Assembly (NCBI GenBank): GCA_016195715.1
Contig: JACPZA010000031.1
Location: 60,336-124,335, forward strand
Direction of reading: 5' to 3'
Length of the DNA: 64,000 nucleotides
Source of the DNA: Candidatus Daviesbacteria bacterium
GTDB lineage: Bacteria; Patescibacteriota; Microgenomatia; Daviesbacterales; UBA10151
Shown here one piece after another: positions 2,615-64,000 of the stretch. The notes beneath the pieces were generated by a model. It worked only from the letters and a program-made list of their open reading frames with translations, did not search any database and was not told where the DNA came from. The position numbers and the translations under genes are program-made. Position 1 is the stretch's first letter. Each line of letters opens with the position of its first letter.

Positions 2615-3286
2615 ATGGGAACAGAATCTGCCGCACCAATCATCATTCATACTACTCCTTTACCTGAAAATAAGGGTATACTACCTTCTCAGTATCCAAA
2701 ATCTTTTCCCAAAATACTTTTTATAGTTTTAATTTTAATTATCATAGCTGAGTTAATTTGGGGAGCTTGGTATATTTTCAGACCCCTTCAAAAAAGAATA
2801 AACTCAAGTCCACAAAACAGTTTGGTGACCAAATTACCTAAGTCTACTGCTTCCATTAAACTTTCATCTATAAATCCTAGCGTATCAGTTGGAGATAAAC
2901 TGTCTGTGGATATTAATTTAAGTTCAAAAAACACCCCTTCAGATGGAGTGGATATAGTCATTAAATATGATCCTAACTTTCTTAGGGTTGAAGGTAAAAA
3001 TGAGGAAGTTTTTATCAAAGGTAGTGTTTTTCCAGAATACCTAGGTTACAAGGTTGATAATAAACTGGGAGTGTTGCGTATTTCTGGGATTAGTGAGGTT
3101 ACATCAGCTCCGGCAATTGCCCAGGGATTGTTTGGGACGGTTAATTTTAAAGCTGTCAATCAGGGAACAACTCAAGTGGTGGTGGATTTTAAGCCAGGAA
3201 ATACTACTGATTCTAACGTCATTGATAGTAAGTCAAATAAAGATATTCTTGACAAAGTGAGCAACCTTTCAGTTAAGATTAATTAG
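2615..3286 (+). CDS. Membrane-anchored cohesin-like domain protein
   Basis: An N-terminal TM helix (ILFIVLILIIIAELIWGAWYIF) is followed by a beta-sandwich-like domain with cohesin-type strands (DIVIKYDPNFLRVEG...GSVFP...LFGTVNFKAVNQGTTQVVVDF). Confidence 0.4.
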   Translation: MGTESAAPIIIHTTPLPENKGILPSQYPKSFPKILFIVLILIIIAELIWGAWYIFRPLQKRINSSPQNSLVTKLPKSTASIKLSSINPSVSVGDKLSVDINLSSKNTPSDGVDIVIKYDPNFLRVEGKNEEVFIKGSVFPEYLGYKVDNKLGVLRISGISEVTSAPAIAQGLFGTVNFKAVNQGTTQVVVDFKPGNTTDSNVIDSKSNKDILDKVSNLSVKIN

Positions 3287-4057
3287 ATGATTAAAAAAAT
3301 TATCGGACTTTTGGCTTTAATTGTTTTTTTAGTTACTCCATCAAGCGCACTTGCAGTTGGAGCAACTTTGTCACTTAATCCTTCCAGTTCAACTGTCAAT
3401 AAAGGTTGCAGTTTTTCTGTTGGGATTGACTTAGATACTGGAGGTAATAATACCGATGGGACTGATGTAATTTTAAAATTTGACCCAACTATTTTAACAG
3501 CTGGAGCAATTACTCAAGGTTCAGTTTATCCTGATTATCCTGGCAAATCAACAGATAACTCAGCCGGGACAGTCACTATTTCTGGACTAGCGTCAGTAAC
3601 CACCCCATTTAATGGTAGTGGCAGATTTGCTGATGTCAGTTTTACAGTTAACCCCAACGCTTCTCAATCAGTTGCTCAGATAAATTTTGATTTTGATCCC
3701 TCTAATAAAACAAATTCCCGGGATTCAAATGTGGTTCAATCAGTTAACGTGGTGGATATTTTAAATTCAGTTACTAATGGTAGTTATACAATTGCTAGTG
3801 GTGCTTGTTCAACTACAGCTACCTCTACACCTACCCCTACTCCAGTTCCTGGTGGTGGCGGAGTAATTGGTGCTTCTACCCCAACCCCTACTCCATTTGG
3901 TTTTATAAATGGAGTTCCAAAAGGTGGATTAATTGCTAGTGGCTCAGGTAATAACAACACTTTGCCTCCAGCTGGAGTTTCTGGACCAACCTTAGCGCTG
4001 TCTATTGTTGGTGTGTTTTTAGTAATTGGTGGAATACTGGGTTTAGCTTTACTTTAA
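3287..4057 (+). CDS. Cohesin-like domain protein with PT/Gly linker and C-terminal LPPAG + TM anchor
   Basis: A signal peptide precedes a cohesin-like core (VILKFDPTILTAG..GSVYPDYPG..GRFADVSFTVNPNAS). Then come a TPTPTPVPGGGG linker and a C-terminal 'LPPAG' followed by a ~25-aa hydrophobic segment ending the protein. The start is adjacent to the upstream stop (TAGATG). Confidence 0.45.
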   Translation: MIKKIIGLLALIVFLVTPSSALAVGATLSLNPSSSTVNKGCSFSVGIDLDTGGNNTDGTDVILKFDPTILTAGAITQGSVYPDYPGKSTDNSAGTVTISGLASVTTPFNGSGRFADVSFTVNPNASQSVAQINFDFDPSNKTNSRDSNVVQSVNVVDILNSVTNGSYTIASGACSTTATSTPTPTPVPGGGGVIGASTPTPTPFGFINGVPKGGLIASGSGNNNTLPPAGVSGPTLALSIVGVFLVIGGILGLALL

Positions 4058-4088: not shown

Positions 4089-5012
4089 ATGAATTTATCT
4101 ACTCTGATAGCTGATTTTTTGGAATATTTAGAGTTGGAAAGAAATGTTTCCCAAAAAACAATTAAAAATTATTCTCATTATTTAAAAAGATTTTTAGATT
4201 TTGCTGGAGATATTAAAGTCTCAAATATTGATTTAAATTTAATTAGAAAATATCGGCTATTTTTAGCCAGGTTTATAGATGAACAAACCAAAAAGCCCTT
4301 AAAACGGGTTACTCAAAATTTCTTTTTAATTGCATTAAGAGCTTTCTTGAGGTATTTATCACGAATTGATGTTAAATCCCTTTCTGCTGAAAAAGTGGAG
4401 CTTGGTGAACAAGACCCCTCCCCGCTTCGTATTTTGAATGAAGATGATTTAGCCAGATTACTTCAAGCACCTGGACAAAGTTCTAAAGAAGGGATTAGAG
4501 ATAAAACTATTTTGGAGCTGCTTTTTTCAACTGGGCTTAGAGTTTCAGAACTGGCATCGCTAAATAGAGATCAAATTAATTTACAAAGACGTGAGTTTGG
4601 AGTAGTAGGAAAAGGTGGTAAAGAACGGGTAGTTTTTTTATCAGATTCTGCCGTGGAGTGGTTAGAAAGATTTTTAATGATGAGAAAAGATAGTTTTAAA
4701 CCTTTATTTATTCGTTATCAAGGTCGAGTTGAAACTTTAGATCAGGGAGAAAAAATGAGACTCACTCCTCGCTCAATTGAACGAATTGTAGAAAAATATG
4801 TTAAATTAGTTGGTCTTGCTATTAAAGCTACACCGCATACTCTAAGGCATTCATTTGCAACCGATTTATTAATAAATGGAGCGGATATTAGATCAGTTCA
4901 AGAGATGTTAGGTCATTCCAATATTTCTACCACTCAAATTTATACTCATGTAACAAACCGCCAACTCAAAGAAGTCCATAAAGCTTTTCATAGCAAAAAC
5001 CGCTCAGAGTAA
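4089..5012 (+). CDS. Tyrosine recombinase, XerC/XerD family
   Basis: The C-terminal catalytic motifs HTLRHSFATDLL...GHS..STTQIYTHV (R-H-R-Y tyrosine) are present, with a phage-integrase N-terminal SAM-like domain. Confidence 0.85.
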   Translation: MNLSTLIADFLEYLELERNVSQKTIKNYSHYLKRFLDFAGDIKVSNIDLNLIRKYRLFLARFIDEQTKKPLKRVTQNFFLIALRAFLRYLSRIDVKSLSAEKVELGEQDPSPLRILNEDDLARLLQAPGQSSKEGIRDKTILELLFSTGLRVSELASLNRDQINLQRREFGVVGKGGKERVVFLSDSAVEWLERFLMMRKDSFKPLFIRYQGRVETLDQGEKMRLTPRSIERIVEKYVKLVGLAIKATPHTLRHSFATDLLINGADIRSVQEMLGHSNISTTQIYTHVTNRQLKEVHKAFHSKNRSE

Positions 5013-5014
5013 GA

Positions 5015-5356
5015 TTAAAATTCTTTAAGAAGCATTGACAGTGCGGTAGATATCACAGATAAAACTATTGCTCCTAAAATTGCTGCCCACCAACCATCAA
5101 TAGTTAAGCCTGGAACTAAAGCTGAAGCCAGTTTTAAAACAATTGCATTCACCACAAAGGCAAATAGACCCAAAGTTAAAAAAGTTAAAGGTGCTGTTAA
5201 AATTAATAATACTGGTTTAATAAAAGTATTAATTACCCCTAAAACTATGGCAGCCAAAATAGCTGCTTGAAAATTTACAACATGAAAGCCTGGAACAAGG
5301 TAGGCTGTAATAATTAAAGCTAGTGCATTAACAAGTAATGAAATAATTAAGAACAT
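5015..5356 (-). CDS. Phage holin family (Phage_holin_4_2/YvlD-like) small membrane protein
   Basis: It is 113 aa, almost entirely 3-4 TM helices, with the characteristic ...GW..AILGAIVLSV.. pattern of the PF04020 family. Confidence 0.55.
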   Translation of the reverse strand: MFLIISLLVNALALIITAYLVPGFHVVNFQAAILAAIVLGVINTFIKPVLLILTAPLTFLTLGLFAFVVNAIVLKLASALVPGLTIDGWWAAILGAIVLSVISTALSMLLKEF

Positions 5357-6374: not shown

Positions 6375-9017
6375 GTGAGTATTGTGAAAATAATGAAGAA
6401 ATTATCTCAGTCGGGGTTTGCTGGAATTTTAGGGCTTTTTAGCTTACTGATTGTGATTATGGGTATTTTAGCTGGGGTTTACTTAGTTAAAAATTATTCA
6501 ACTAATCCAAAGACCCAAGCGACAGGTGAAACTATTAAATTTGTTGATGACCAAGGAAATACTATTAACTCAACCACCTCAAATATAGTTAAAGTTTCGC
6601 TAACTGCTCCAGTTTGGTCAGCTACGTCTAGCAGTTTTTTGAAATTAATTCCTAATTTGTCTTTAATCAAAGATGCCCAAGCTGCAACTTTATATACAGT
6701 TTCAGGAAAACTCTATGATCAAAAAACTAATCAAGGAATTGGAGCAGGATTAACAATTGAAACTTGTGCTGATCCAAGTTTTAGAAGTAACCCCAAAGTA
6801 AGTTCTGATGGGACTTTTAGTTTCCAAGTTAGGGATAAAGAAACTTATTGTGTCAGGGCTCCACAAGTTTCAGGTTACAGTCTTAGTGGAACTTGTTGTT
6901 ATGAGTGGCAAATTGCCAATATTAATTGCCAGACAAGCTCAGATCCAGTTTGTGGAGGTTCATCAGATGAATCATCAGGTGCTAAAGAGCAAGATAGGTC
7001 AACTGACTCTGGTTTTAATTTTGCTTATCAAGCAAGTGGCAATAGCGGAGGGGGCGGAAGTGGTGATTCTGGCAAAGTAAAAGTTTCTGGAAAGGCTTAC
7101 GACAAAGCTACCAATAAACCAGTTGGAGTTGGACTAACTGTGGCAACTTGTGGTGGTGCAAAAAGGGATCCAGTTATTCAATCTGATGGCAGCTTTCAAT
7201 TTAAAGTTGATCAAGGCGGACTATTTTGTGTCAGAGCACCTGATGTTTCAAGATACACTAACAACTGCTGTTATGAGTGGCAAATTGCTGGGGTAGATTG
7301 TGCAGCTCATCCTAAAAGTGCTGATTGTCAGCAAGGTGATGCTAAGACCATGGACCAAAGTACAGATAGCAACTACAATATAATATACACCTCAAAAACC
7401 AAACCTACCCCAACACCTAATCCCCAAACAAAATCAGTAGTTTTAGCTGAAGATCCAAACTTTACTATTAATTCTAAAACTCTAGATTTTACAACCAGTC
7501 CAATAAGTTATACTTTTTCTGATTCAACTCCAGGTTTAAAAGTTTTATATGCTAAATTTATTGCAATTGATGGTAGAGTTCAAAACGCTTCACCCTTCCC
7601 TGCTCAAATTCAATTGATCAATGCGTCTAGCAAACCTAATATTATAGTTGTTATGACAGATGATCAAACTCTACAATCAATGGCTTATCTTCCAAAAGTT
7701 AACTCATTAATTCGTGATCAGGGTAGCGAATTTACCAATTTCTTTGTTTCTAGCTCACTTTGTTGTCCATCCCGCTCGGAATTTTTAACCGGTCAATATG
7801 CCCACAATAATGGAGTTATCTCAAATCAACCTCCAAACGGTGGTTATGACAAGCTAGATAATACCAATACTTTAGCAGTCTGGTTAAAAAATTCAGGTTA
7901 TTATACCGGACTAGTTGGCAAATATTTAAATGGTTTTGGTAATGCTAAAAATGCTGATCCCAAAGCTCTCCCACCTGGCTGGAGCGATTTTCATGGCGGT
8001 TGGGGTCAATCATTTTATAGTAGTTATTTTAACTATACTTTGGATGAAAATGGTAAATTAGTTGATTATAAAGATGATGGTGTAACTGATAATAGCTACA
8101 TGACTAATGTCTTAACCCAAAGGGCGGTTGATTTTATAAATGGCCGTAAAAATGATTCTAATCCTTTCTTTCTTTGGTTAACTTATTTTACCCCTCACGA
8201 AGATGCCTCAGTTGATGGGCCAACTCCAGCTAGAAAATACCAGGGTAAGTTTGCTAGTGAGCCTCTTCCAAAGCCTGCTAGCTTTAACGAAGCAGATGTT
8301 TCTGACAAACCCCAGATGGTCCAAGATTTTGCGCTGCTTAATTCATCAGACATCTCTCATATCACCAATCACTACCGTCATACCCTGGAAGCTTTGCAAT
8401 CTGTAGATGATGGAGTTGAAACACTAATTAATACCCTCCAAACTGCTGGTAAACTTGAGAATACAATTATTATGTTCACCTCAGACAATGGTTACTTTAA
8501 TGGAGAGCACAGAAAGCCCAAGGGTAAATCAATGCTTTATGAAAACTCGATTCATTTACCACTTTTAGTTTCTGGTCCAGGAATTCCTCATCAAAGCATT
8601 GATCGAGCAGTTGTAAACATTGATTTTGCACCAACCATTGTAGATTTTAGCGGCGCAACTGCTAAAAGAACTATGGATGGAATGTCTTTTAGAGGTTTAA
8701 TTGCCAGCCCGGCTATTTCATGGAGGGATAGTTTCTTATTAGATGGTCCAGAGAATGAATATACCGCTGTTAGAACAAAGCAATATATCTATGCCGAGCA
8801 TACCTCAGGAGGTAAGAATCCAAATGAGTTATATGATTTATTTAGTGACCCAGACGAGCTGACTAATTTAATGTATACTAACTCCAAAAGCCTAAACCAA
8901 GGATTGGTAACTATGCTCCATCAACTCAAAACTTGCAATGGTTCAAACTGTAATGTTCCCTTAGCCTCTGGATTGTTGCCTTGGACTAGTTCAACCAGTT
9001 CTGCAGGATTGAAATAA
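6375..9017 (+). CDS. Secreted/anchored fusion: N-terminal TM or pilin-like leader, 2x Cys-rich 'CCYEWQ' modules (paralogous to ORF 595) and a C-terminal sulfatase catalytic domain
   Basis: Sulfatase signature: IIVVMTDDQ...SSSLCCPSRSEFLTGQY (C-x-P-x-R formylglycine motif), with ...FTSDNGY..GEHR..KGK downstream. The upstream modules align with 595..2565 (VSGKAYDKATNKPVGVGLTVATCG..CCYEWQIAGVDC). Confidence 0.75.
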   Translation: MSIVKIMKKLSQSGFAGILGLFSLLIVIMGILAGVYLVKNYSTNPKTQATGETIKFVDDQGNTINSTTSNIVKVSLTAPVWSATSSSFLKLIPNLSLIKDAQAATLYTVSGKLYDQKTNQGIGAGLTIETCADPSFRSNPKVSSDGTFSFQVRDKETYCVRAPQVSGYSLSGTCCYEWQIANINCQTSSDPVCGGSSDESSGAKEQDRSTDSGFNFAYQASGNSGGGGSGDSGKVKVSGKAYDKATNKPVGVGLTVATCGGAKRDPVIQSDGSFQFKVDQGGLFCVRAPDVSRYTNNCCYEWQIAGVDCAAHPKSADCQQGDAKTMDQSTDSNYNIIYTSKTKPTPTPNPQTKSVVLAEDPNFTINSKTLDFTTSPISYTFSDSTPGLKVLYAKFIAIDGRVQNASPFPAQIQLINASSKPNIIVVMTDDQTLQSMAYLPKVNSLIRDQGSEFTNFFVSSSLCCPSRSEFLTGQYAHNNGVISNQPPNGGYDKLDNTNTLAVWLKNSGYYTGLVGKYLNGFGNAKNADPKALPPGWSDFHGGWGQSFYSSYFNYTLDENGKLVDYKDDGVTDNSYMTNVLTQRAVDFINGRKNDSNPFFLWLTYFTPHEDASVDGPTPARKYQGKFASEPLPKPASFNEADVSDKPQMVQDFALLNSSDISHITNHYRHTLEALQSVDDGVETLINTLQTAGKLENTIIMFTSDNGYFNGEHRKPKGKSMLYENSIHLPLLVSGPGIPHQSIDRAVVNIDFAPTIVDFSGATAKRTMDGMSFRGLIASPAISWRDSFLLDGPENEYTAVRTKQYIYAEHTSGGKNPNELYDLFSDPDELTNLMYTNSKSLNQGLVTMLHQLKTCNGSNCNVPLASGLLPWTSSTSSAGLK

Positions 9018-9094: not shown

Positions 9095-11650
9095 ATGTTT
9101 CTGTCCAAATTTAAAAAGCAGCTTGCTGTTTTTTTAAAAAATCAACAAGGTGCAATTCCGCTTTTGGTGCTAGTGGCAGTTTTAGGGCTAGTGGCTTTTT
9201 TGGCTATCTCTTCAACTTTTTCTTTTAGAAATAGTATTTTTTCTAGACTTTTTCCTAAACCCCCCTCTCATGCTGCAAGCAAAAATGGTCCAGTTCAAAG
9301 CATCTATACTCCTGATAATTATGGAGTTAATTATTTTGGTTTTTCAAGTGATGATACCATCCGTGGACAACAACTTGATTTAATCAAGCAAACTGGTGCC
9401 AAATGGGTACGAGGAGTGACCTGTCAATGGCAAAGTATTCAATGGGATCAAAATATGTACAGCAGCAACTTATGGAATTTTGCTGCATGCGATAAAATAG
9501 TCAATGAAATAGTTTCTCGAGGTATGACCCCGCTAATGGCACTCTGGTATTCTTCAAATTCCTGTACCACTGCTCCTTCTAATCCAATTACCCAAATTTC
9601 AGGTTACCCACCCTGTGATAATCAGAAGTTTCATGATTATGTTTATCGAGTGGTCAGCCGTTATGGATCCAATGCCAATGGCATTGTCCCTGATAAAAAT
9701 GACACAGCAGCATATGGACAAAACAAGGTGCATTTTTATGAGCTTGGTAATGAGCCAAACAGACAAAATGCATTTCCGATTGCTGATGGACTTGGTGGGA
9801 CCTATGATGCTACTAATGAGCCAGCCCACCTAGCAGCTAACACTTATGTCTCTCTTTTAAATACTGCCCATGATGCCATCAAAGGATCATCAGGGGCAGA
9901 TGCTGGTTCAAATCTGGTGGTGGCATCAATAAATGCTGGTAATGTTATTGTCCCTAGAACAGATTTCTTAACTGATGTTATAAAGGGCGCTGGGAATAAT
10001 ATTGATATCATGAACCTGCATGTCTATGGTGATCAAAAAAGTTTTGACACCTCGCTATCTCAAGCAAAGCAGGCATATGTAGATGCAGGTATAGCAGAAA
10101 AACCTTATTGGGTGACAGAGAATGGTTATGCTAGTGACTCAACCTTTAAAAGTTTCCCCTTCCCCAGCACTGAACCAGATTTTTATTGCCCAACTGGAAC
10201 TTGTTATCAGCAGCAAGCCAATTATATCAATGAAATGATTCCTTATATGTTCAATTCTGGCGTTTCAAAAGTATTTTGGTTTGCTAGTGTTGATGATCCC
10301 CAAAGCACCAGTCCTGGGTATTGTACTGATAGTTTGATGTATTACCCTGGTTATCAATGTAATCAGAATGGTCCTGCACCATCCTCTGTACCTTTAACCC
10401 AAAAAGATCCTGGGTTTACTGCCTACAAAAATTTAGTTGCCAAGCCAGACCCATTACCTCCAATTACCAGCATGGTTTCTCCAGTAGATGGATCTAGTAT
10501 TTCTGGTGCACTTACTATTTCAGCCACAGCTACAGATAATGTTGGGGTAACTAAAGTGGAGTTTTATGTTGACGGAGGAGATAATAAGGGAGGAACTGGA
10601 CCCTATAAAACTATGACTGCCCCAACCTCAGGCAGCACCTATTCTAATGACCAAAATACATTTACTTTAGTTCAGGGTTCAACCCATACTCTTTATGTTA
10701 AAGCTTATGATGCTGCCGGAAATTTTGCCCAATCTAATACTATCTCCTTTAAAGTAACTGACACTACTGCTCCAGCTGTATCTATTACCTATCCTGCCAG
10801 TTCTACCCCTCCTCTTTCTGGAGGAACAACCATTACAGCTACAGCTACAGATAATATTGCTATAGCTCATGTAGATTTTTATATTGATGGGGCACTTTTA
10901 AGCTCTGATAAAAATCCAGATAGTGGGACAAATAATTATTCAGCATTCTGGGGTTCTGGTACTTTACCTCAAGGTTCAATCCACACCATTTATGCAATAG
11001 CTTATGACACTGCTGCTACCCCAAACCAAACTACCTCCCAAACAATTACAGTCACTACTAATGATTCCTCTAAACCAGTAGTTAGCAATATAGTTCCAAC
11101 CAATTTAGCAACCATCAATTCTGGAATTATAGCTGTTTCTGCTACTGCCACAGATAATGTTGGGGTAACTAAAGTTGAGTTCTGGCAAGACTCAGATTCT
11201 GCACCTTTTGCTACAGATACATCTGCCCCCTACTCTGCTAGTTGGGATGCGACTAATTTAAGTCAAGGAGTTCAACACACTCTAACAGTTAAAGCTTACG
11301 ATGCCCAGGGAAACATTGGTAGTGGAACTTCCAAAGTAACTTTTATTGATACTACAAAGCCAGTAATTTCTAACTTACTACCAGTTAATGGTACTGTTGT
11401 TACTCTGAATGTGACTGTTAATCTTCAAGCTACAGCTACAGATAATGTCAAAATAAAAAATGTGACCTTCTCGGTGGATGGAACTCAGAAATGCTCTGTC
11501 GGATATTCCTCCGCTGTCAATGATGTTTACACCTGCTCTAATTGGAAACCAACTCTAAAATCCCATACTTATAATATTTCAGTGACAGCTAATGACACAG
11601 CCTCCTCAACCAATAGCACAACTAGTACGTATACTTTAAAAACATTATAA
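9095..11650 (+). CDS. Glycoside hydrolase, clan GH-A (GH5-like) catalytic domain + 4 bacterial Ig-like repeats + conserved C-terminal domain
   Basis: The catalytic acid/base motif YELGNEPN and the nucleophile motif WVTENGY are present. Repeats of the type ATATDNVGVTKVEFYVDG (Big-like) follow. There is an N-terminal TM or pilin-like leader. Confidence 0.65.
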   Translation: MFLSKFKKQLAVFLKNQQGAIPLLVLVAVLGLVAFLAISSTFSFRNSIFSRLFPKPPSHAASKNGPVQSIYTPDNYGVNYFGFSSDDTIRGQQLDLIKQTGAKWVRGVTCQWQSIQWDQNMYSSNLWNFAACDKIVNEIVSRGMTPLMALWYSSNSCTTAPSNPITQISGYPPCDNQKFHDYVYRVVSRYGSNANGIVPDKNDTAAYGQNKVHFYELGNEPNRQNAFPIADGLGGTYDATNEPAHLAANTYVSLLNTAHDAIKGSSGADAGSNLVVASINAGNVIVPRTDFLTDVIKGAGNNIDIMNLHVYGDQKSFDTSLSQAKQAYVDAGIAEKPYWVTENGYASDSTFKSFPFPSTEPDFYCPTGTCYQQQANYINEMIPYMFNSGVSKVFWFASVDDPQSTSPGYCTDSLMYYPGYQCNQNGPAPSSVPLTQKDPGFTAYKNLVAKPDPLPPITSMVSPVDGSSISGALTISATATDNVGVTKVEFYVDGGDNKGGTGPYKTMTAPTSGSTYSNDQNTFTLVQGSTHTLYVKAYDAAGNFAQSNTISFKVTDTTAPAVSITYPASSTPPLSGGTTITATATDNIAIAHVDFYIDGALLSSDKNPDSGTNNYSAFWGSGTLPQGSIHTIYAIAYDTAATPNQTTSQTITVTTNDSSKPVVSNIVPTNLATINSGIIAVSATATDNVGVTKVEFWQDSDSAPFATDTSAPYSASWDATNLSQGVQHTLTVKAYDAQGNIGSGTSKVTFIDTTKPVISNLLPVNGTVVTLNVTVNLQATATDNVKIKNVTFSVDGTQKCSVGYSSAVNDVYTCSNWKPTLKSHTYNISVTANDTASSTNSTTSTYTLKTL

Positions 11651-11664
11651 TGAAATAGACTGCC

Positions 11665-13836
11665 ATGCTTAAATTATTAGACCAAAAAGGTGCTATTCCA
11701 CTACTAATACTGATTGCTGGGGTTGGGTTAATTGTTTTTTTAATTATTTCTGCAACTTTTTCCTTCAGGAATCAAACCTTCCAAACTCTTTTTCCCAAAC
11801 CCTCCTCTAAAGCTGCAACACTCTATGGGCCAGATAACTATGGTGTTAATACTGGTATAGCTTTATCTGAAGCAGCTATGCCAGATGTCATGGCAAAAGA
11901 GCATGCTGCAAATATCGGTTGGATTAGATTACTTTGCAATTGGGATAGTATCCAAGCTTCTGATCCAGGACCTGTGCCAAACCCTCCCACTGGTTTAAGT
12001 AATTTTAAATTTAACTCATGCGATGCAAATATGACCAATGTTAAAAATAATTCTTTGCAACCTTTACTTGGATTTTATTATGCTTCAGCATGGTGCAATA
12101 CTGGTGGAGTTGGTTTATCTCAACAAGAAAAGTCTGCTCCTTGTGATTACAATAAATTCTATGACTTTGTTTATCATTTAGTGGCCAGGTATGGATATAC
12201 TGAACACTCTGATTTAAGCCTAACCAAAGCTAATGGTTATGCCCAAGGGATAGTTAAATATTGGGAGATTGGTAATGAACCAGATGCAGACTCTCAACTT
12301 GCTCCAGGTGGAACTGCAATTGAAATTTCTAATAATTATGCTCATATTTTACAAACTGCCCATGATGCTATTAAAGCAGCAGATCCTAATGCTAAGATTT
12401 TAATTGGGGGTTTGGTCATTCAGAGTAAGGCAGACCCAACTTTTTTCCAGGATCTGTTAAACAATACTACCTATCCCAATACCAAAAATAACTTTGATAT
12501 TGGAAACTTTCATACTTATGGAATTAAAACAGAAGCCCAATCTAAGATGAATGAAGTTAGAAATGATTTAGCAGCAGTTGGAGTAACTAAAGATACTTGG
12601 GTAACAGAGAATGGTTATCCTTCTAATCTTGCTCAACAAAATCTCCTATCTGATGCCAGGCTAGAAGCTAATTATGGAACAGATGTGCAAGGTCAAGTTA
12701 ATTATATGAATGATTTAAGGCCTTATATTTTAAAAGACTTGGGAGCTAAAAAAGTCTTTTGGTATACCAGTTTAGATGACCCTTCAGACAGTACTTCTTT
12801 TTGCAGCCATGGTTTATTTTATTACAATGGTTACCAGTGCAACCAAGCAGTTTTGCCATCTCCTGCTCCTGTAGAAACTGCTAAACCTGCTTTTGATACT
12901 TATAAAAATATTATTGCTGGAACTGATACCACTCTTCCAACTGTTTCAATGAGTCCTCTTCCTCAATATGTAACTGGCAATGTAACTTTAACAGCCAATG
13001 CTTCAGATAATATTTGGGTTTATAAAGTGGAGATTTATGTTGATGGCATAATGCAAACTGATAATAGTGGCAATCCAGATTTTTATGCACCATTTACAGA
13101 TTCTTGGCCTACAGGAACTTTAGTTCAAGGAAGCAGTCATTCTATTTATGCCAAAGCTTATGATGAAAATTTTAATATGACCCAATCTGCTCCTATCACC
13201 ACAGTTATCCAAGACACTAGTAACCCCACTATTTCTATTAACTCGCCAGTTGGAGGAAGTACTGTGACTGGAATAGTTCCTATAAGTACAACATCTTCTG
13301 ATAATGTTGGAGTAACTAAGGTAGAATTTTATTTGGATAGTTCCACCACCCCTTTTGCAACTAATTCTAACCCTTCCCCTGCTCCTTCACCTACCACTTT
13401 TAATACCACTGCTAATTGGAATTCAACCACCTTACCTCCAGACCAGCAAGGTATTTACCACACAATAGCTGTTAAAGCTTATGATGCTTATGGAAATATA
13501 AGTTTACAGCCCTCAGTCAGGGTGAAATTAGCTGATACCACTAAACCTACTTTGAGCAATTTGCTGCCTATAAATGGGACAATTATTACTGTTGGTATTT
13601 ATGCAACTTTGCAGGCTACAGCTACAGATAATGTAAGAATACTTAATGTGACCTTTTCAATTGATGGAACGCAACAGTGCTCAAAGGGTTACAGTACTGC
13701 AATCAATGATGTTTACAGTTGTACAAACTGGAAGCCAACTTTACACAACCATACCTATACTATTTCAGTTACAGCTAATGACACAGCTTCACCAGCCAAC
13801 AGCACTACTCAAACTTTTACCCTAAAAACTTTATAA
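11665..13836 (+). CDS. Glycoside hydrolase, clan GH-A (GH5-like), tandem paralog of 9095..11650
   Basis: WEIGNEPD and WVTENGY motifs are present, with Big-like repeats. The C-terminal ~100 aa are nearly identical to the upstream paralog (..LQATATDNV(K/R)I.NVTFS(V/I)DGTQ.CS.GYS.A(V/I)NDVY.C.NWKPTL..HTY.ISVTANDTAS..NSTT.T(Y/F)TLKTL). Confidence 0.65.
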   Translation: MLKLLDQKGAIPLLILIAGVGLIVFLIISATFSFRNQTFQTLFPKPSSKAATLYGPDNYGVNTGIALSEAAMPDVMAKEHAANIGWIRLLCNWDSIQASDPGPVPNPPTGLSNFKFNSCDANMTNVKNNSLQPLLGFYYASAWCNTGGVGLSQQEKSAPCDYNKFYDFVYHLVARYGYTEHSDLSLTKANGYAQGIVKYWEIGNEPDADSQLAPGGTAIEISNNYAHILQTAHDAIKAADPNAKILIGGLVIQSKADPTFFQDLLNNTTYPNTKNNFDIGNFHTYGIKTEAQSKMNEVRNDLAAVGVTKDTWVTENGYPSNLAQQNLLSDARLEANYGTDVQGQVNYMNDLRPYILKDLGAKKVFWYTSLDDPSDSTSFCSHGLFYYNGYQCNQAVLPSPAPVETAKPAFDTYKNIIAGTDTTLPTVSMSPLPQYVTGNVTLTANASDNIWVYKVEIYVDGIMQTDNSGNPDFYAPFTDSWPTGTLVQGSSHSIYAKAYDENFNMTQSAPITTVIQDTSNPTISINSPVGGSTVTGIVPISTTSSDNVGVTKVEFYLDSSTTPFATNSNPSPAPSPTTFNTTANWNSTTLPPDQQGIYHTIAVKAYDAYGNISLQPSVRVKLADTTKPTLSNLLPINGTIITVGIYATLQATATDNVRILNVTFSIDGTQQCSKGYSTAINDVYSCTNWKPTLHNHTYTISVTANDTASPANSTTQTFTLKTL

Positions 13837-14051: not shown

Positions 14052-16641
14052 TATTAGTTTTTTCTTTAGAAGATACTACTGTTGCAGCAGCTACATTTTC
14101 TCCGCTTCTAACTCTCATTAATATTACACCTTGGGTTTGTCTTTGCAGCGTTGGAACATCTTTTAGATTGAGTTTAATCAGTTGACCTTTATTGGATGTT
14201 AATATCAAAGTATCAGCTTCTGAGTCAACTACTTGAGCGGTAACAATTTTGCCAGTTTTTTCGGTAACTTGAGCAGCTTTAATTCCATTGCCTCCCCTGC
14301 CTTGTCTTTTCCAAGCTGAGATCAAAGTTTTTTTACCTAACCCCTTTTCCATAATTACTAAAACCTCAGCTTTAGGATCATTAACTAAATTCATAGAAAC
14401 AACCTCATCATCTTTTCCCAGCATAATCCCTCTTACGCCAGACGTATCTCGATGGGTTGGTCTGACTTGAGATTCTCCAAATCTAATAGACTGACCATGA
14501 TAAGAGACAATAATGACATCATCTTGCCCAGTTGTGGGGACAACCCAACGCAGTTCATCACCTTTATCTAATTTAATTGAGATTAAACCATTTTTTCTAA
14601 TATTGGCATACTCACTAATTTGGGTTTTTTTAACATTCCCTTGTCTGGTACACATAAATAAAAATTTAGTCACATCTTTGGCGCGGGATGTTAAAATAGC
14701 AGTAATTTTTTCACCTTGATCAACATTAATTAAATTAACAATTGCTTGACCTTTAGCCACTCGAGAAGTTTCTGGAATCTCCCAAACTTTAATTTGAAAA
14801 ACTCTACCTCGATCTGTAAAAAATAATAAATTATCTAGCGTTTTGGTATAGAAAATATGAGAAACTGCATCTTCTTCTTTGGTAGTTATTCCTGAGACTC
14901 CTTTACCGCCTCTATTTTGAGTTCTAAAACTCATTGGAGATTGACGCTTGACATATCCGCCTTCTGTAACCGTGACGATCGTTACCTCATCTGCAACTAA
15001 ATCTTCTTCAGAAAATTCCCCTACTTTTTGTTTGTAAACTCGAGTTTTTCTCTCATCGCCGTAGCGTTCTTTAATTTTTAATAACTCATCTTTGATAACT
15101 TTTAAGATTTTTTCTGGGTGAGAAAGTAAGTCTTCTAAATAAGTAATTAATTCTCTAATCATTTTTAACTCATCTTCAATTTTTTGCCTCTCCAACGCTG
15201 CTAAACGGCGAAGCTGCATATCTAAAATTGCTACAGCTTGAAGTTCAGTTAATTTAAATTTGCTTATTAATGCAACTTTAGCTTCATCTGCGTCTTTGCT
15301 TTTTCTAATGGTATTAATAACTTCATCAATGTTATCAACTGCAATTTTTAAACCTTCTAAAATATGTTCTCTGGCTTTGGCTTCTGCTAGTTCAAATTCT
15401 GATCTTCTTATAACAATAACTTGGCGATGATGAATAAACTCTTCCAAAACTCGCTTTAAAGTCATTAAGTGGGGTACACCATCCGAGAGCGCTACCATGT
15501 TGACATTAAAAACAGATTGCAGGGCTGTGTGTTTATATAAATTATTTAAAACTGATTGGGGCTTGCCATCTCTTTTTAGTTCAATTACCACTCTCATTCC
15601 TTTGCGATCTGATTCATCTCTTAAATCTGAGATTCCATCAATCTTTTTCTCTTTGACTAAATCTGCAATTCTAGCAATTAAAGTGGCTTTATTAACCTGA
15701 TAAGGCAGTTCAGTAACTATAATGTCAAATCTGCCACCTTTGGTTTCTTCAATCTCAGCTTTGGCGCGCATCACAATCCTCCCTTTACCTGTAGCATAGG
15801 CTGCTAAAATTTCACTATGATCGTAAATTGATGCACCTGTTGGAAAATCTGGTCCTTTAATAAATTTCATTAAATCCTCAACAGTCGCTTCAGAAGAAAA
15901 AGTATCAGAATGCCTCTGTTCAGGGTCCTGTCCCTTCGGTTTCTCAAATCTATCCTTCGACTCAATGTCTTCGATCAAAGTCTGCGGTACGTTTTGAGAG
16001 CTCTCCTTCGGGCCACCCTTCACAATAGTTGGATTCTCAATCAGGTGAATCAAAGCATCAGTGACTTCACCTAAATTGTGTGGAGGGATTTGAGTAGCCA
16101 TTCCAACAGCAATTCCAGATGCGCCGTTAAGTAATAAATTAGGGATGACTGCAGGGAGTAAAGTTGGTTCCTCCGTTGTCCCAGAGTAATTATCAATAAA
16201 ATTAACAGTATTTTTATTAATGTCGCGAAGCAGCTCATCTGCAATCGCTGAAAGTCTGGCTTCGGTATACCTCATAGCAGCAGGTGAATCTCCATCAACT
16301 GATCCAAAGTTTCCCTGACCATCAACTAAAGGATATCTCATGGAAAAATCTTGGGCCATTCTGACCATGGCTTCATAAACTGGTGCATCACCGTGGGGGT
16401 GATAATTTTTTAAAACTTCTCCAACTACCGCTGCAGATTTTTGATAACGGCTAGTGTGATGCAGATTTTGTTGCTGCATGGCATAGATAATTCGCCGCTG
16501 AACTGGTTTTAGGCCATCTCTAACATCAGGCAGAGCGCGGGATACAATCACTGACATGGCATAATCTAAGTAGGATTTTTGCATCTCATCTGTTAAAGAT
16601 ACTGGTTCAATCTTACCGATGTTAGTTGGTTTGTTATCCAT
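14044..16641 (-). CDS. gyrA: DNA gyrase subunit A, with ~45-aa GC-rich insertion before the GPDFPT loop
   Basis: Motifs AMRYTEARL (catalytic Tyr), GPDFPT and the C-terminal beta-pinwheel repeats are present. The inserted segment [44 protein letters not shown] is encoded by GC-rich DNA at 15895-16030. Confidence 0.95.
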
Positions 16642-25795: not shown

Positions 25796-27499
25796 ATGGC
25801 GCTAGCTGCTCAAACGATTGAAGAAATTTTGCTTAAACAAGGTTATTTACGTCCTGATCAAGTCTCAGCTATTAAGCTTGAAAGTATTAATTCTGGTCAA
25901 CCTTCGGAAAAAATTATCAGAGAACACAACTTTGCCACGGCAGAACAAGTGGCTCAAGCCCTCTCAATATTACTTGGGGTGCCATTTATCAAGTTAGAAA
26001 ATAAAGCCATTTCCACAGAAGTTTTAAATTTAATTCCTGAAGCTGTGGCAAAGCATTACCAACTAATCCCCTTTGATCGTCAGCTGGATAGGTTATCAGT
26101 AGCTATGGTTGATCCACTGGATTTACAAGTCATTCAATTTATTGAGAAAAAATCCGGACTTAAAGTTATTCCTTTTTTAGGCTATACCGAAGATATTTTA
26201 AAAGCTATCTCCAGCCAGTATTCTCAAAACCTAACCTCTGAAGTCACCTCAGCTCTAAAAGAAGTTTCTGAACTGCAGCGAGCAAATGCCCCTCAAGAGT
26301 CGATTGATCAAGCAGAAGTAATCCGCGAAGCACCAGTTTCCAATATTGTTACCCAACTTTTGGAGTATGCAGTTAAGACCCGAGCTTCAGATATTCATAT
26401 TGAACCTCAAGAAAATCAAACTAGAGTTAGATATAGAATTGATGGAATTTTGCACGAAAAAGTTATTTTACCTAAAAAAGTTCACGAAGCAGTTGTTTCT
26501 CGAGTTAAAATTTTATCAAATTTAAAAATTGATGAACGAAGGTTACCGCAAGATGGTAGGTTTACTTTTGAGTTTGCTGGAGCAGAGATTGATTTGCGTA
26601 TCTCCACTCTGCCGACAGTTTTTGGAGAAAAAGTAGTATTAAGATTGCTGCCAAAATCTGCTCAAGCACCCTCACTGACTGATTTAGGACTGCGTGGCAG
26701 TTCTCTAAAAACCCTAGAAACTCAACTCCTTCGTACCCATGGAATTATTTTAATCTGTGGCCCAACAGGTTCAGGTAAAACCACCACTTTATATTCAGTT
26801 TTATCGAAACTTTCAACAACAAAAGTAAATATTTTAACAATTGAAGATCCGGTTGAGTATGAAATTCCTGGAGCAAATCAAGTTCAAGTTAATCCCCAAA
26901 TTGGCTTAACCTTTGCCTCAGCTCTGCGGTCTTTTTTGCGCCAAGACCCAAATATTATCCTGGTTGGAGAGATTCGAGATACTGAAACTGCAGAGTTGGC
27001 TATTCAAGCTGCACTAACTGGTCACCAAGTTTTTTCTACACTACATACTAATACTGCATCAGGCGCTCTGCCTAGAATGCTAGACATGGGAACTGAGCCA
27101 TTTTTACTAGCTTCAGCTGTGAACGGAATAGCTGGGCAGAGAATTTTGCGAAAAATTTGTGAGCATTGTCGGGTTTCATTTACTCCTCCACCTGAGGTGA
27201 TTGAAAATATTAAAGTTACCTTAGGAAATCTAATCTCAACTAACAAACCAATCCAGCTTTACAAAGGTCAGGGTTGTAATTTTTGTAATCACTCTGGTTA
27301 TTTAGGACGGACAGGAATTTATGAAGTTTTATCAGTTTCAGAAAAAATTATGAAATTAATTTTAGAGCGAGCTTCATCCGTTGCTATTGAAGAACAAGCC
27401 GTATCTGAAGGGATGATTACTTTAAAACAAGATGGCTATTTAAAAGTTTTAGAAGGGGTGACCACTTTTGAGGAAGTTTTGCGTGTAGCCCAAGATTAA
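25796..27499 (+). CDS. pilB: Type IV pilus assembly ATPase PilB (GspE family)
   Basis: There is an N-terminal GSPII_E N-domain. Walker A LICGPTGSGKTTTLYS, the Asp/His boxes and a tetracysteine motif (CEHC..CNFC) are present. Confidence 0.9.
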   Translation: MALAAQTIEEILLKQGYLRPDQVSAIKLESINSGQPSEKIIREHNFATAEQVAQALSILLGVPFIKLENKAISTEVLNLIPEAVAKHYQLIPFDRQLDRLSVAMVDPLDLQVIQFIEKKSGLKVIPFLGYTEDILKAISSQYSQNLTSEVTSALKEVSELQRANAPQESIDQAEVIREAPVSNIVTQLLEYAVKTRASDIHIEPQENQTRVRYRIDGILHEKVILPKKVHEAVVSRVKILSNLKIDERRLPQDGRFTFEFAGAEIDLRISTLPTVFGEKVVLRLLPKSAQAPSLTDLGLRGSSLKTLETQLLRTHGIILICGPTGSGKTTTLYSVLSKLSTTKVNILTIEDPVEYEIPGANQVQVNPQIGLTFASALRSFLRQDPNIILVGEIRDTETAELAIQAALTGHQVFSTLHTNTASGALPRMLDMGTEPFLLASAVNGIAGQRILRKICEHCRVSFTPPPEVIENIKVTLGNLISTNKPIQLYKGQGCNFCNHSGYLGRTGIYEVLSVSEKIMKLILERASSVAIEEQAVSEGMITLKQDGYLKVLEGVTTFEEVLRVAQD

Positions 27500-27502
27500 T
27501 TT

Positions 27503-28576
27503 ATGAATATTCAACAACTACTTGACTTAACAATTGGCTCAAATGCTTCTGATTTACACCTTTTGGTGGGCTCTCCACCAACTTTAAGAATTGATGGAAA
27601 TTTAGCACCAATTAACGGTATGAATGTAATTTCTCAATCTGATTTTGAGAGTTTGGTTTTTGCGCTAATTTCTCCTTACCAAAAAGATCTTTTTTTGAGA
27701 GAATGGGAACTTGATTTAGGTTTTGATTTTGCTGGTAAAGCCAGGTTTAGGGTCAATATTTATAAACAAAGAGGAGCACTAGCCGCATCGCTTCGACTTA
27801 TACCCAAAACTATTCGATCTATTGAAGAGACCGGTTTACCGCCAATAGTTTCTAAATTAACCGAGCTTGAACAAGGTTTAGTTTTGGTGACTGGCCCAAC
27901 AGGTCATGGCAAATCCACAACTTTAGCTGCCTTAATTAATCAAATTAACAAAACCCGCTCAGTCCATATCTTAACTATTGAAGATCCAATTGAGTTTGTT
28001 TATCCAGAAGGTAAAGCTCTGATCTCTCAACGAGAACTAAACTCTGATACTAAAGCTTGGAATAACGCCCTAAAGTCTGCTTTAAGAGAAGATCCAGATG
28101 TAGTGTTAATTGGTGAGATGAGAGACTATGAAACAATTGCTTCAGCCATGACTATTGCTGAAACTGGACATTTAGTATTGGCAACGCTGCACACTAACTC
28201 TGCCTCTCAAAGTATTGATCGTATTATTGACGTTTTTCCTGAAAATCAACAACCTCAAATTCGCTCTCAGCTGGCTGAGGTGATTGAAGCAATTATCTCC
28301 CAGCGTTTAATCCCCACGATTAATCCTGGACGAGTTTTAGCAGCTGAGTTACTTTTTGCAGTCCCAGCTCTGCGAGCTATTATTCGGGAGGGAAAAAATC
28401 ACCTAATTGATAATTTAATTCAAACCTCAGCTGAAGCTGGAATGATTGGTTTGGAAACGTCTCTCGCGACATTAGTTCGGGAGGGATTAATTACTTCGGA
28501 GGTAGCTTTAAATTATGCTCTTAAACCGCAATTACTTAACAAATTTTTAGGTACTGATACTACTTCTTCAGCTTAA
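27503..28576 (+). CDS. pilT: Twitching motility ATPase PilT
   Basis: Walker A VLVTGPTGHGKSTTLAALI is present. Length is 357 aa, with the AIRNLIRE-like motif AIIREGK. Confidence 0.9.
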   Translation: MNIQQLLDLTIGSNASDLHLLVGSPPTLRIDGNLAPINGMNVISQSDFESLVFALISPYQKDLFLREWELDLGFDFAGKARFRVNIYKQRGALAASLRLIPKTIRSIEETGLPPIVSKLTELEQGLVLVTGPTGHGKSTTLAALINQINKTRSVHILTIEDPIEFVYPEGKALISQRELNSDTKAWNNALKSALREDPDVVLIGEMRDYETIASAMTIAETGHLVLATLHTNSASQSIDRIIDVFPENQQPQIRSQLAEVIEAIISQRLIPTINPGRVLAAELLFAVPALRAIIREGKNHLIDNLIQTSAEAGMIGLETSLATLVREGLITSEVALNYALKPQLLNKFLGTDTTSSA

Positions 28577-28579
28577 AAT

Positions 28580-29788
28580 ATGCCAGTTTACAATTATATT
28601 GCTAAAGATCTCAGCGGAGTTGAGCATAAAGGTACGATTGAAACCGCAGACGAACACAGCGTCAGTCGAATTTTAAGTAAAAAATCCCTGATTGTTATCT
28701 CAATCAAAGAAAAAAAAGGTAACGCTGCCAATATTTTAAATAAATTTTTAAACAAAATCTCCTTTACCCAAATTGTGATTATTACCAGGCAACTTGCCAC
28801 TATGATTGAAGCAGGTTTAGTTTTGTCTGAGGCACTAGATATCTTAGAAAGCCAGCAATCTAATAAAAAACTCAAAGACATTTTAGGAGAAGTTTCCAGA
28901 GATGTTAAATCTGGTTTAGATTTAGCTTCGGCTTTAAGGAAACATCCAGATGCTTTTCCAGCACTTTACTGTAATTTAATCAAAGCTGGTGAGTCATCAG
29001 GTAAATTAGATGATGTTTTGTTACAAATGGCGACCAGTTTAGAAAAAGATCGAGAGTTTAGAAGTCGTATCCGAGGTGCGATGATTTATCCAATTGTTAT
29101 CTCGATAATGATGGTTTTAGTTGGAGGAGTAATGATCTTTTTTGTCATCCCAAAACTAACTTCGCTTTATACTCAATCTAATATTGAACTTCCCCTGCCT
29201 ACTAAAATTTTGATTGGTACTTCTAACTTTTTTCTAGGATATTGGTGGATGATTTTAATTTTTATAGTTGTTGGAGGAATTGCTTTTAGAAGATGGACCA
29301 GCACTCCTTCAGGCAAATATATTTTTGATAGGCTTTTACTTAGAATTCCAGTAGTAAGTAAAATTATCGAAGGAACATCTTTAACTAATTTTACTCGGAC
29401 TTTTGGATTACTAATTGCTTCGGGTATACCAATTTTAGATTCGTTGGTGATTGTTAAAGATGTGATGGGAAATGCGGTTTACAAAAAAGCTATCGAAACT
29501 AGTGCTCAAGGGGTAGAGCGAGGTTTACTTTTCTCAACTCAACTTGAGCAGATAGGAATTTTTCCCAGGATTGTTCCGCAGATGTTTCGGGTTGGTGAAG
29601 AAACTGGCAAAGTTGATGATATCGCTTTTAAATTATCAGATTATTTTGAATCCGAGTCAGACCATTTGGTTAAAAATTTAACTGTTATTATTGAACCAGT
29701 AATTTTAGTAATTTTAGGTATCGGAGTAGGTTTTTTAGTTTTATCCATTATTCTGCCAATTTACAAACTAACCAATTCGTTCTCGTAA
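28580..29788 (+). CDS. pilC: Type IV pilus platform protein PilC (GspF family)
   Basis: Two GspF repeats, three TM segments and a length of 402 aa. Confidence 0.9.
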   Translation: MPVYNYIAKDLSGVEHKGTIETADEHSVSRILSKKSLIVISIKEKKGNAANILNKFLNKISFTQIVIITRQLATMIEAGLVLSEALDILESQQSNKKLKDILGEVSRDVKSGLDLASALRKHPDAFPALYCNLIKAGESSGKLDDVLLQMATSLEKDREFRSRIRGAMIYPIVISIMMVLVGGVMIFFVIPKLTSLYTQSNIELPLPTKILIGTSNFFLGYWWMILIFIVVGGIAFRRWTSTPSGKYIFDRLLLRIPVVSKIIEGTSLTNFTRTFGLLIASGIPILDSLVIVKDVMGNAVYKKAIETSAQGVERGLLFSTQLEQIGIFPRIVPQMFRVGEETGKVDDIAFKLSDYFESESDHLVKNLTVIIEPVILVILGIGVGFLVLSIILPIYKLTNSFS

Positions 29789-29879
29789 AGTATAAGTTTA
29801 ACCACTTGACTGAGTGTTAACCATTGTGTCTAAAATAAGGTTAGAGATAAAACTCTAAATTTTAAGGAGGTGAGATAGT

Positions 29880-30452: not shown

Positions 30453-30458
30453 TTTGGG

Positions 30459-31367: not shown

Positions 31368-31461
31368 AATTTAGTAGCTAAATTGGGGTATTGACAGCTT
31401 AAAAAAAAGATGTAAGAGTAGATATATAAGAGAAAAATAAATTTAAGAAATTTTTCAGAAA

Positions 31462-31935: not shown

Positions 31936-31969
31936 AACTATGTATATAAAATCTATAAATAGTACAAAA

Positions 31970-32563: not shown

Positions 32564-32579
32564 AGAAAGGAAGTAAAAA

Positions 32580-33080: not shown

Positions 33081-33150
33081 TTTCCCTGATCCTCTCTTTT
33101 TTACTAATTTCACTTTATTTCTCATCAACTAATGTGATACATTAAATTTA

Positions 33151-33642: not shown

Positions 33643-33643
33643 T

Positions 33644-34099: not shown

Positions 34100-34133
34100 A
34101 ATTACTTCTTTTACTAGTGACTAGCAAGCTAAA

Positions 34134-35229: not shown

Positions 35230-35238
35230 TTACAAATT

Positions 35239-37728: not shown

Positions 37729-37745
37729 CTTAAAATAAAAACAAA

Positions 37746-39575: not shown

Positions 39576-39737
39576 AGAGCTAGTTGCTAGAATCTTGAAT
39601 CTAGTTATACAATCAATTAGGAGTTATGAATTTAAAATTAAGAATTAAGCATCTAAAACAGAAGAAAGGTGGTGATAGTCAATTTGGCTGTAGAAATAGT
39701 TAAACAGATAAAGATTGTCCAAATTGACTAAAGTCCC

Positions 39738-40778: not shown

Positions 40779-40779
40779 A

Positions 40780-63259: not shown

Positions 63260-64000
63260 ATGCCCAAAAATAAAAATACTCGGCTAACTTTGTTAGTGGT
63301 AGCTTTAGGACTTATAATATTTGTTTTAACTTCCTTTTTTTTCCAATTTAAAAAACCACCTTTTAGTTTCTTATATCCCAAACCTCCATCTAAAGCTGCT
63401 AGCGGTGATATATCTGAGAACTCTTTTAGTTTAGTTTCTTCAAATAATGCTCCGAATATTGGTGATCAAATAGCAGTTTCAATATATGCTAGATCTGATA
63501 CTACTCCGGCTAATTTGTTTATCTCCAAAATCAATTTTTCTGCTGACAAATTACAAGTCACTCATTTAGACGTAAGTGCGGGTTTTCCAGTTTTGTGGCC
63601 AGATAGATTTTATGACAATCAGACTGGAGTAATTTCTATCATCGGTGCAGTCCCAACTCCTGGAATCCAGACTACTAGTACAGATTTACTTCTTGCAGTT
63701 TTAACTATTAATGTAGTGGCTTCTGGTGATGCTAGTATAACTTTTGATCCAAGTTCGGCAATTTTAAATAATATTGATAGTAGTAATATTTTAACTATCA
63801 AAAGAGATTTAACGTTAACAGTCCCCTCTCCAGTGGTAACAACTTCTGATAGTGGTGGTTCATCTGGCGGAGGTGGAGGCGGTGGGGGCGGCGGCGGAGG
63901 AGGTGGGGGTGGAGGTTCTTCCGGTGGCAGTGGGGGTGGAGGCGGTGCGCCAGCCGCTCCTAGAAGAGGTATTGATTTGAATGGTGATGGCCGAGTTAAT
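63260..64000 (+). CDS. Partial CDS (3' end lies outside the window): TM anchor, 'LYPKPPSKAAS' motif, cohesin-like domain, poly-Gly linker, start of a dockerin (DLNGDGRVN)
   Basis: An ATG at 63260 with the frame open to the window end. The cohesin-like core is ..IAVSIYARSD..LQVTHLDVSAG..ASITFDPSSAIL.. A Gly run of more than 30 residues follows, then GIDLNGDGRVN, which matches the first dockerin Ca-binding segment. Confidence 0.5.
   Translation, partial: MPKNKNTRLTLLVVALGLIIFVLTSFFFQFKKPPFSFLYPKPPSKAASGDISENSFSLVSSNNAPNIGDQIAVSIYARSDTTPANLFISKINFSADKLQVTHLDVSAGFPVLWPDRFYDNQTGVISIIGAVPTPGIQTTSTDLLLAVLTINVVASGDASITFDPSSAILNNIDSSNILTIKRDLTLTVPSPVVTTSDSGGSSGGGGGGGGGGGGGGGGGSSGGSGGGGGAPAAPRRGIDLNGDGRVN

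Follow-up and report, generated by a model that had tools for sequence, protein, structure and literature searches.

Why should proteins of unrelated function begin with the same long stretch of sequence, and how might that stretch be processed? These questions are raised by 64,000 nucleotides of Candidatus Daviesbacteria DNA (contig JACPZA010000031.1, positions 60,336 to 124,335; 35% G+C), called the window here over its whole length, in which two tandem glycoside hydrolases and a cohesin-like protein share an N-terminal leader. We find that this leader is a widespread N-terminal module of Daviesbacteria that is joined to unrelated passengers. On balance, we lean toward the view that it is a lineage-specific, extended Sec-type signal peptide of these bacteria that would be cleaved by type I signal peptidase.

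A leader shared by unrelated proteins

An earlier reading made from the sequence alone (the sequence-only reading) had placed three proteins at 9095, 11665 and 63260, each with a transmembrane helix followed by a common motif, and all three are found as it described them. The proteins and their leaders are the following:

9095..11650, + strand: protein 1, 851 residues; leader, a catalytic region resembling clan GH-A, then a run of Big_7 Ig-like domains
9095..9274, + strand: leader of protein 1, residues 1-60 (85 bits against the leader profile); proposed cleavage after Ala60
11665..13836, + strand: protein 2, 723 residues; leader, a GH53/GH5-type catalytic domain and three Big_7 domains
11665..11814, + strand: leader of protein 2, residues 1-50, ending FPKPSSKA; proposed cleavage after Ala50
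63260..64000, + strand: protein 3, cut by the end of the window; leader, a cohesin-like domain, a Gly-rich linker and the start of a dockerin-like DLNGDGRVN motif
63260..63397, + strand: leader of protein 3, residues 1-46, ending YPKPPSKA (49 bits against the leader profile)

Each protein has a short charged tip, a hydrophobic helix of about 20 residues and then F-x-F-(RN/KK)-x-x-F-x-x-L-(F/Y)-P-K-P-(P/S)-S-(K/H)-A-A. The SKAAS that the sequence-only reading gave as the end of the motif needs one correction: the motif is present in all three proteins, but protein 1 reads SHAAS. The leader of protein 1 passes from an n-region with NQQG through the helix AIPLLVLVAVLGLVAFLAIS to STFSFRNSIFSRLFPKPPSHA, that of protein 2 scores 102 bits against a three-sequence leader profile and is followed, directly after S-x-A, by the predicted mature start ATLYGPDNYGVN, and that of protein 3 lacks the usual Gly of the n-region. 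A six-frame scan of the window finds PKP.S.AA at these three N-termini only, and the back-translated leader pattern has 3 matches in the window; in 100 dinucleotide-preserving shuffles the expectation is 0.00 and the highest count 0.

The leader extends far beyond this window. An exhaustive search of 1.84 billion protein cluster representatives with a profile of four leaders matched 498 clusters at E <= 1e-3 (98 at E <= 1e-10) that are under 50% identical to one another, and in all of the best 150 of these 498 matches the match starts at residue 2-30. Among the 81 members scanned, the passengers belong to 44 different Pfam families, including Big_7 (20), Peptidase_S8 (15), Dockerin (8), CBM60 (6), GH5 (4) and Cohesin (4), together with sulfatase, CBM4_9, purple acid phosphatase, pectate-lyase-like, NHL and M11 peptidase proteins and subtilases with N-prodomains; all are extracellular types. 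The motif is thus not confined to three recent paralogs, the outcome that the sequence-only reading had named as fatal to its idea, but occurs in several genomes, and the breadth of clusters and passenger families bears out the proposal of a positionally conserved N-terminal processing or sorting element common to unrelated proteins.

Where an organism can be named, it is Candidatus Daviesbacteria, as for all four named members among the 20 looked up. A degenerate DNA scan that covered one genome per species in the Genome Taxonomy Database (GTDB) gave 18 matches, of which 8 are true N-terminal leaders on low-GC contigs; the sequence after the motif diverges completely in all 8. Daviesbacteria is the label of five of these; the other three, at 36-39% G+C, are recorded as 'uncultured Gammaproteobacteria'. 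Contigs titled 'uncultured Gammaproteobacteria' with this same base composition (L002, L008 and L018 among the related loci; CAZDEH010000030.1, CAYLXC010000010.1 and CAYLXC010000012.1) encode typical leader proteins and are probably mislabelled or mis-binned metagenome-assembled genomes of Daviesbacteria-like organisms.

Residue counts across the leader, taken from the best 150 profile matches, reveal a uniform anatomy. From the initial Met to the Ala of S-x-A the median length is 51 residues, divided into a short charged n-region ending N-Q-K-G, a membrane helix of about 20 residues and a c-region of about 21 residues, (S/T)-N-T-F-x-F-K-D-x-L-F-x-x-L-(F/Y)-P-K-P-x-S-x-A. About 20 positions are near-invariant along this length. 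The boundary between n-region and hydrophobic core is marked by Gly in 138 of 139 sequences (profile column 5), mostly as N-Q-K-G and usually after Lys or Arg, which occupy column 4 in 84 of 136. The core spans columns 6-24, with a near-invariant Pro or His three residues after the boundary Gly and near-invariant L10, L12, A14, G17 and F21, and beyond the helix the same holds for S-N-T, F30, K31, D32, L34, F35, L38, F/Y39, P40, K41 (149/150), P42, S44 and A46 (149/149). After A46 conservation collapses. An AlphaFold model of the leader, built on a three-sequence alignment and of low confidence past the membrane helix, shows a single helix that begins with the core and continues unbroken until the residue preceding P-K-P; the hydrophobic moment of the post-helix segment is weak (0.2-0.4) and its conservation periodicity ambiguous.

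Such similarity could in principle be plain inheritance, that is, an N-terminus copied through duplication, recombination or gene conversion in the recent past and constrained no further than any generic signal peptide. Leader genes are indeed often tandem neighbours, as are 9095 and 11665; they number 24 in the roughly 200 kb of the window and related loci, with clusters of three in L005, three in L006 and four within 23 kb of L021. We nevertheless consider this account very improbable. The 498 clusters share less than half of their residues and carry unrelated passengers, and generic signal peptides do not keep some 20 near-invariant positions. Moreover, synonymous sites have diverged: the leaders of the window are just 51-65% identical in DNA and use the same codon at only about half of their identical residues, so that their similarity is due to selection and not to recent copying, and the leader is under purifying selection.

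Cleavage, anchoring or sorting

Among the explanations that the sequence-only reading offered for the motif, a signal peptidase site is the best supported. In statistics anchored on the site (n = 148, from the 150 best profile matches), Ser stands at -3 in 144 and Ala at -1 in all 148, while Pro is found at +1 in none and at +2 in two, compared with about 11% from +3 to +10. Acidic residues are most frequent at +2, few basic residues occur immediately past the site, and Pro occupies -5 and -7. Conservation ends at this point, and in alignments with non-CPR homologues of the same hydrolase (that is, homologues from outside the candidate phyla radiation, CPR) S-x-A falls on the A-Q-A, A-W-A and A-A-A boxes of ordinary signal peptides of about 30 residues, and YG(V/I)N, the first motif of the catalytic domain, follows 5-12 residues later. 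In 23 subtilase members S-x-A is followed 5-15 residues later by the opening strand of the prodomain, (D/G)E(I/V)L.KFK, as is classic for a pre-pro layout. The 112 members with 200 residues or more contain no second membrane helix, no C-terminal helix and no LPXTG, and nine of them have a dockerin-like C-terminal end, which suits a released protein.

From these sequence patterns we infer Sec dependence, cleavage at S-x-A and a role for the extension. In the mechanism that we propose, the helix would insert with its N-terminus inside and the passenger would be translocated; the P-K-P turn would break the helix and present S-x-A to type I signal peptidase, which would cut after the Ala and release an enzyme, a subtilase pro-enzyme or a cohesin/dockerin protein. 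The conserved helix face and F-x-F-K-D-x-L-F might hold the protein transiently at the membrane, set the time of its release, or direct it to a particular site or partner.

The leader resembles ordinary Sec type I signal peptides in being N-terminal, in its charged n-region and hydrophobic core, in the helix-breaking Pro before the site, in the small residues at -3 and -1 and the lack of Pro at +1, and in its extracellular passengers, which include pre-pro subtilases. It departs from them in its proportions, with a median of 51 rather than 20-30 residues, a core of about 20 residues and a c-region of about 21 rather than 3-7. Furthermore, ordinary signal peptides share no sequence, whereas the leader keeps its near-invariant positions across hundreds of unrelated proteins.

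Several considerations weigh against cleavage by a general signal peptidase. Type I signal peptidases normally cut 3-7 residues after an h-region of 7-15 residues, and long h-regions tend to act as uncleaved anchors; here S-x-A lies about 21 residues past a helix of about 20. A helix continuing to P-K-P, as in the low-confidence AlphaFold model, would put S-x-A away from the membrane surface. The near-invariant Gly and helix positions are not needed by Sec or signal peptidase I and hint at a more specific partner. A second type of leader, described below, ends in P-K-A, with Pro at -3, and is a poor fit to the -3/-1 rule. The residue statistics come from the best profile matches and are therefore partly selected for the motif. 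Finally, no signal peptidase gene was seen in the window or next to leader genes: regular expressions for signal peptidase I and sortase motifs gave nothing convincing in the window and loci except PilD, and the Pfam annotations of four further Daviesbacteria loci contain no Peptidase_S26 next to leader genes.

The same geometry suggests an alternative in which the leader is never removed. As an uncleaved signal anchor with a conserved stalk, it would keep enzymes, pro-proteases and cohesin proteins tethered on the outer side of the cell membrane, and the F-x-F-K-D-x-L-F helix with its P-K-P-x-S-x-A hinge would serve as a standard spacer or as the place where a surface partner docks. A strongly hydrophobic helix of 20 residues is typical of anchors, the distance of some 21 residues between helix and S-x-A fits such a stalk, as does the single long helix ending at P-K-P in the low-confidence model, and the members have no other anchoring device (no LPXTG or C-terminal helix in the 112). 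A cell without an outer membrane would presumably also gain by keeping hydrolases at its surface. Yet a spacer leaves unexplained the strict Ser at -3 and Ala at -1, the missing Pro at +1 and the abrupt end of conservation, as well as the alignment with Ala-x-Ala in homologues, and enzymes with a dockerin, like subtilases of the pre-pro type, are classic examples of released proteins. We therefore think a permanent anchor unlikely.

Other established classes of signal were compared with the leader. The sequence-only reading had also suggested a sortase-like or a lipid attachment site, and neither is supported: the signal is N-terminal, with neither LPXTG nor a C-terminal helix in any of the 112 members, and the leader consensus has no Cys or lipobox. 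A lipoprotein signal peptide was rejected on the ground that neither +1 nor any column of the leader has Cys as a common residue, and a Tat signal peptide on the ground that the n-region consensus N-Q-K-G has no RR.

The comparison with known sorting signals that the sequence-only reading had proposed yielded no counterpart in the databases. The leader has no N-terminal Pfam match (E <= 0.01-10) and no NCBIfam match (E <= 1), including the YSIRK, KxYKxGKxW, ESPR and SipW-cognate models, and a literature search on export or sorting signals of Daviesbacteria, CPR, Microgenomates and Patescibacteria found nothing relevant. In function it is closest to Sec signal peptides with conserved, family-like motifs, to which it is unrelated in sequence. 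The YSIRK-G/S and KxYKxGKxW peptides of Gram-positive cocci and the ESPR peptides of autotransporters are likewise Sec signal peptides with a conserved sequence and mark some of the surface or secreted proteins; they affect the place or the speed of secretion, and ESPR peptides are 40-60 residues long. Their conserved part, however, lies before or inside the core, whereas the largest conserved block of the leader follows the core into the cleavage site, and they differ from it in sequence and in lineage, which here is CPR/Microgenomates. The SipW-cognate peptides of TasA and TapA in Bacillus are also a recognisable signal peptide subclass, served by SipW, a dedicated signal peptidase paralogue that exists alongside the general one, but the leader family is far larger, its passengers are far more diverse and it has no NCBIfam match. 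The LPXTG/sortase, PEP-CTERM/exosortase and GlyGly-CTERM/rhombosortase systems offer a third parallel, in which a tripartite arrangement of motif, membrane helix and charged tip is placed on many unrelated surface proteins of one lineage. Unlike these C-terminal signals, the leader would be an N-terminal mirror image, and LPXTG is absent from the 112 members.

The leader is also not the only export signal that these genomes appear to use. Ordinary short signal peptides are found in L021 (LVHA|QD and VAFA|EE) on giant SpaA-like proteins (L021 16105-22035 and 1-3635 on the - strand), and the protein at 3287-4057 of the window has a probable signal peptide site, SSALA|VG. In addition, a second conserved leader type starts with [NS]-Q-x-G, has a helix ending G-V-Y-L-(T/V) and continues with x-Q-x-T-N-x-x-P-K-A over about 10 residues, after which the sequences diverge; the P-K element is common to both leaders. 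It is carried by the sulfatase of the window and by seven proteins in four related loci, three of which are named here:

6375-6520 of the window: second leader type, N-terminus of the sulfatase
L002 774; L007 2825-3265 (- strand); L022 1103, 6515, 8198, 10080 and 14517-15902 (- strand): second leader type

Sulfatases and M11 peptidases are found with either leader type. The window and related Daviesbacteria contigs thus appear to contain no fewer than three classes of N-terminal export signal. Because short signal peptides and the second leader type also occur, export alone does not require the main leader module, and because short ordinary signal peptides are present in related contigs, and probably in the window, the conserved extension probably carries extra sorting, retention or timing information.

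This surplus of information can also be taken as a sign of a dedicated N-terminal sorting system, in which a specific membrane enzyme or receptor would read the whole 46-residue module. The enzyme could be a specialised signal peptidase paralogue, as SipW is for TasA and TapA. Alternatively, a prepilin peptidase could cut after the Gly, so that the enzyme would remain in the membrane, or attached to a pilus-like fibre, by a hydrophobic, pilin-like N-terminal helix, much as archaeal class III sugar-binding proteins do. Several features are consistent with such a system: the boundary Gly, usually after Lys or Arg, stands at the prepilin cleavage position; the conserved L10, A14, G17 and F21, with the positions beyond, suggest helix-helix recognition; export is possible without the module; and a prepilin peptidase is encoded in the window together with a large type IV pilus operon. 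This operon (25796-42023) has about ten pilin genes with G-F-T-L-(I/V)-E and includes the following:

30459-31367: PilD prepilin peptidase (Peptidase_A24)
35847-36734: PilX_N protein

A protein of 420 residues in a related locus (L024 15358-16620), with a weak N_methyl match and a Laminin_G_3 domain, resembles a modular pilin and does not belong to the leader family.

Cleavage in the prepilin manner meets specific difficulties. Class III prepilin-type signals, including the E5-less PilX/GspK and the archaeal sugar-binding proteins, share with the leader a Lys/Arg-Gly directly before a helix of about 20 residues, but the leader has neither Phe at +1 nor Glu at +5, its +1 residue being Ala, Val or Ile and its +5 residue Leu in 127 of 150. 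It has no match to Pfam N_methyl or PilX_N (E <= 10) or to any NCBIfam model (E <= 1), whereas the true pilins and the PilX-like protein of the window do match those models; it also has no pilin globular domain. The Gly is absent from protein 3 and from some other members, and a cut at this position would leave the conserved S-x-A after the helix unexplained. As a class, a prepilin N_methyl signal peptide was rejected, with Gly at -1 present but Phe or Met at +1, Glu at +5 and the profile match absent.

For a sorting system of either form, no candidate partner gene recurs beside leader genes in the roughly 200 kb examined, and we regard the idea as doubtful. In its most developed version, which seems to us improbable, the leader would be the substrate tag of an undescribed Daviesbacteria sorting system, the N-terminal counterpart of sortase and exosortase, and one of at least two tags, the other ending G-V-Y-L-V...T-N-x-x-P-K-A. 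An enzyme or receptor would read the Gly, one helix face and the P-K-P-x-S-x-A box and guide hydrolases and cohesin/dockerin proteins, dozens in each genome, to a specific destination on the surface, a picture that we offer tentatively. An extended signal peptide cut at S-x-A, with extra information in its extension, is the reading that we prefer.

The passengers of the window

The proteins at 9095 and 11665 are tandem paralogs whose catalytic parts are 36% identical (22-48% per 50-residue block), in agreement with the proposal that their catalytic cores have diverged. Both contain GNEP and VTENGY motifs, in which N-E-P would hold the acid/base and T-E-N-G the nucleophile. The label 'GH5-like' that both had been given holds for protein 2, which exceeds the Pfam cut-offs for Glyco_hydro_53 (37.5 bits against 24) and Cellulase/GH5 (27.6 bits against 23.5) and is 100% identical to a protein named 'glycosyl hydrolase 53 family protein [Candidatus Daviesbacteria bacterium]' at NCBI. 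For protein 1, with no direct match to its catalytic domain in Pfam, the label stands solely through homology to protein 2. A sequence search of solved structures found no relative of the catalytic domain.

Beyond the catalytic domain, protein 1 matches Big_7 at E 8.7e-44 over four stretches, and each protein ends in a domain of this kind:

11348..11647, + strand: C-terminal Big_7 Ig-like domain of protein 1, with a conserved Cys pair (E 1.2e-9)
13534..13833, + strand: C-terminal Big_7 Ig-like domain of protein 2, 73% identical to its counterpart in protein 1

When scanned alone, the last 100 residues of protein 1 score 39.2 bits against Big_7 (PF17957; cut-off 24.1). The sequence-only reading had called the two C-terminal domains nearly identical, which overstates their similarity, and recent gene conversion can also be rejected: at 73% identity, and with the same codon at just 49% of identical residues, the domain is neither near-identical nor a recent conversion, and its similarity reflects conservation at the protein level. 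The conserved Cys that had been noticed is real, with two in both hydrolases. The domain is the final member of a series of ordinary Ig-like repeats and has a Cys pair in addition. An AlphaFold model of low confidence, which supplies the structure prediction that had been proposed for this domain, is an all-beta, eight-stranded sandwich whose best matches among solved structures are PKD domains (TM 0.6-0.77).

Protein 3 had been described as a cohesin scaffoldin-like protein. Its fragment in the window has no Pfam match at E <= 0.1, so the cohesin label has no direct support from that source. It is still probable by transitive homology, for by phmmer protein 3 matches three leader-bearing proteins (P0155, P0080 and P0165; E 1e-16 to 1e-26) that score as Cohesin (PF00963; 24.6-41 bits) followed by a C-terminal Dockerin. 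Cohesin and dockerin modules are present in this CPR lineage, and several leader proteins join an N-terminal cohesin and a C-terminal dockerin in one chain. Elsewhere in the window, 2615-3286 encodes a membrane-anchored cohesin protein (Pfam E 7.4e-6) and 595-2565 a 656-residue protein with a weak dockerin match.

Surrounding genes and broader significance

The 656-residue protein (595-2565) and the sulfatase (6375-9017) share in their N-terminal halves a repeated unit of about 120 residues, VSGKAYD.ATNK..GVGL.VATCG...RDPVI.SDG.F.F, which has a weak CarboxypepD_reg match; the sulfatase therefore has a long non-catalytic N-terminal extension. Just upstream of the secreted-enzyme cluster are a tyrosine recombinase (4089-5012; Phage_integrase with a SAM-like N-domain, E 1e-44) and, on the - strand, a membrane protein of the Phage_holin_4_2 family (5015-5356).

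CPR bacteria such as Daviesbacteria have not been cultivated, and their surface and secreted proteins are known by prediction only. Standard predictors may take so long a leader for a membrane anchor, and much of the secretome, including proteases, glycoside hydrolases, sulfatases and cohesin/dockerin proteins, would then stay hidden. A single leader profile can list the exported enzymes of the lineage, and it gives a precise predicted cleavage site that can be tested by proteomics. The leader also raises the question of why several distinct export tags exist side by side in one organism. If a dedicated partner exists, the leader would define a new sorting system; if not, signal peptidase would be able to work far from the membrane helix.

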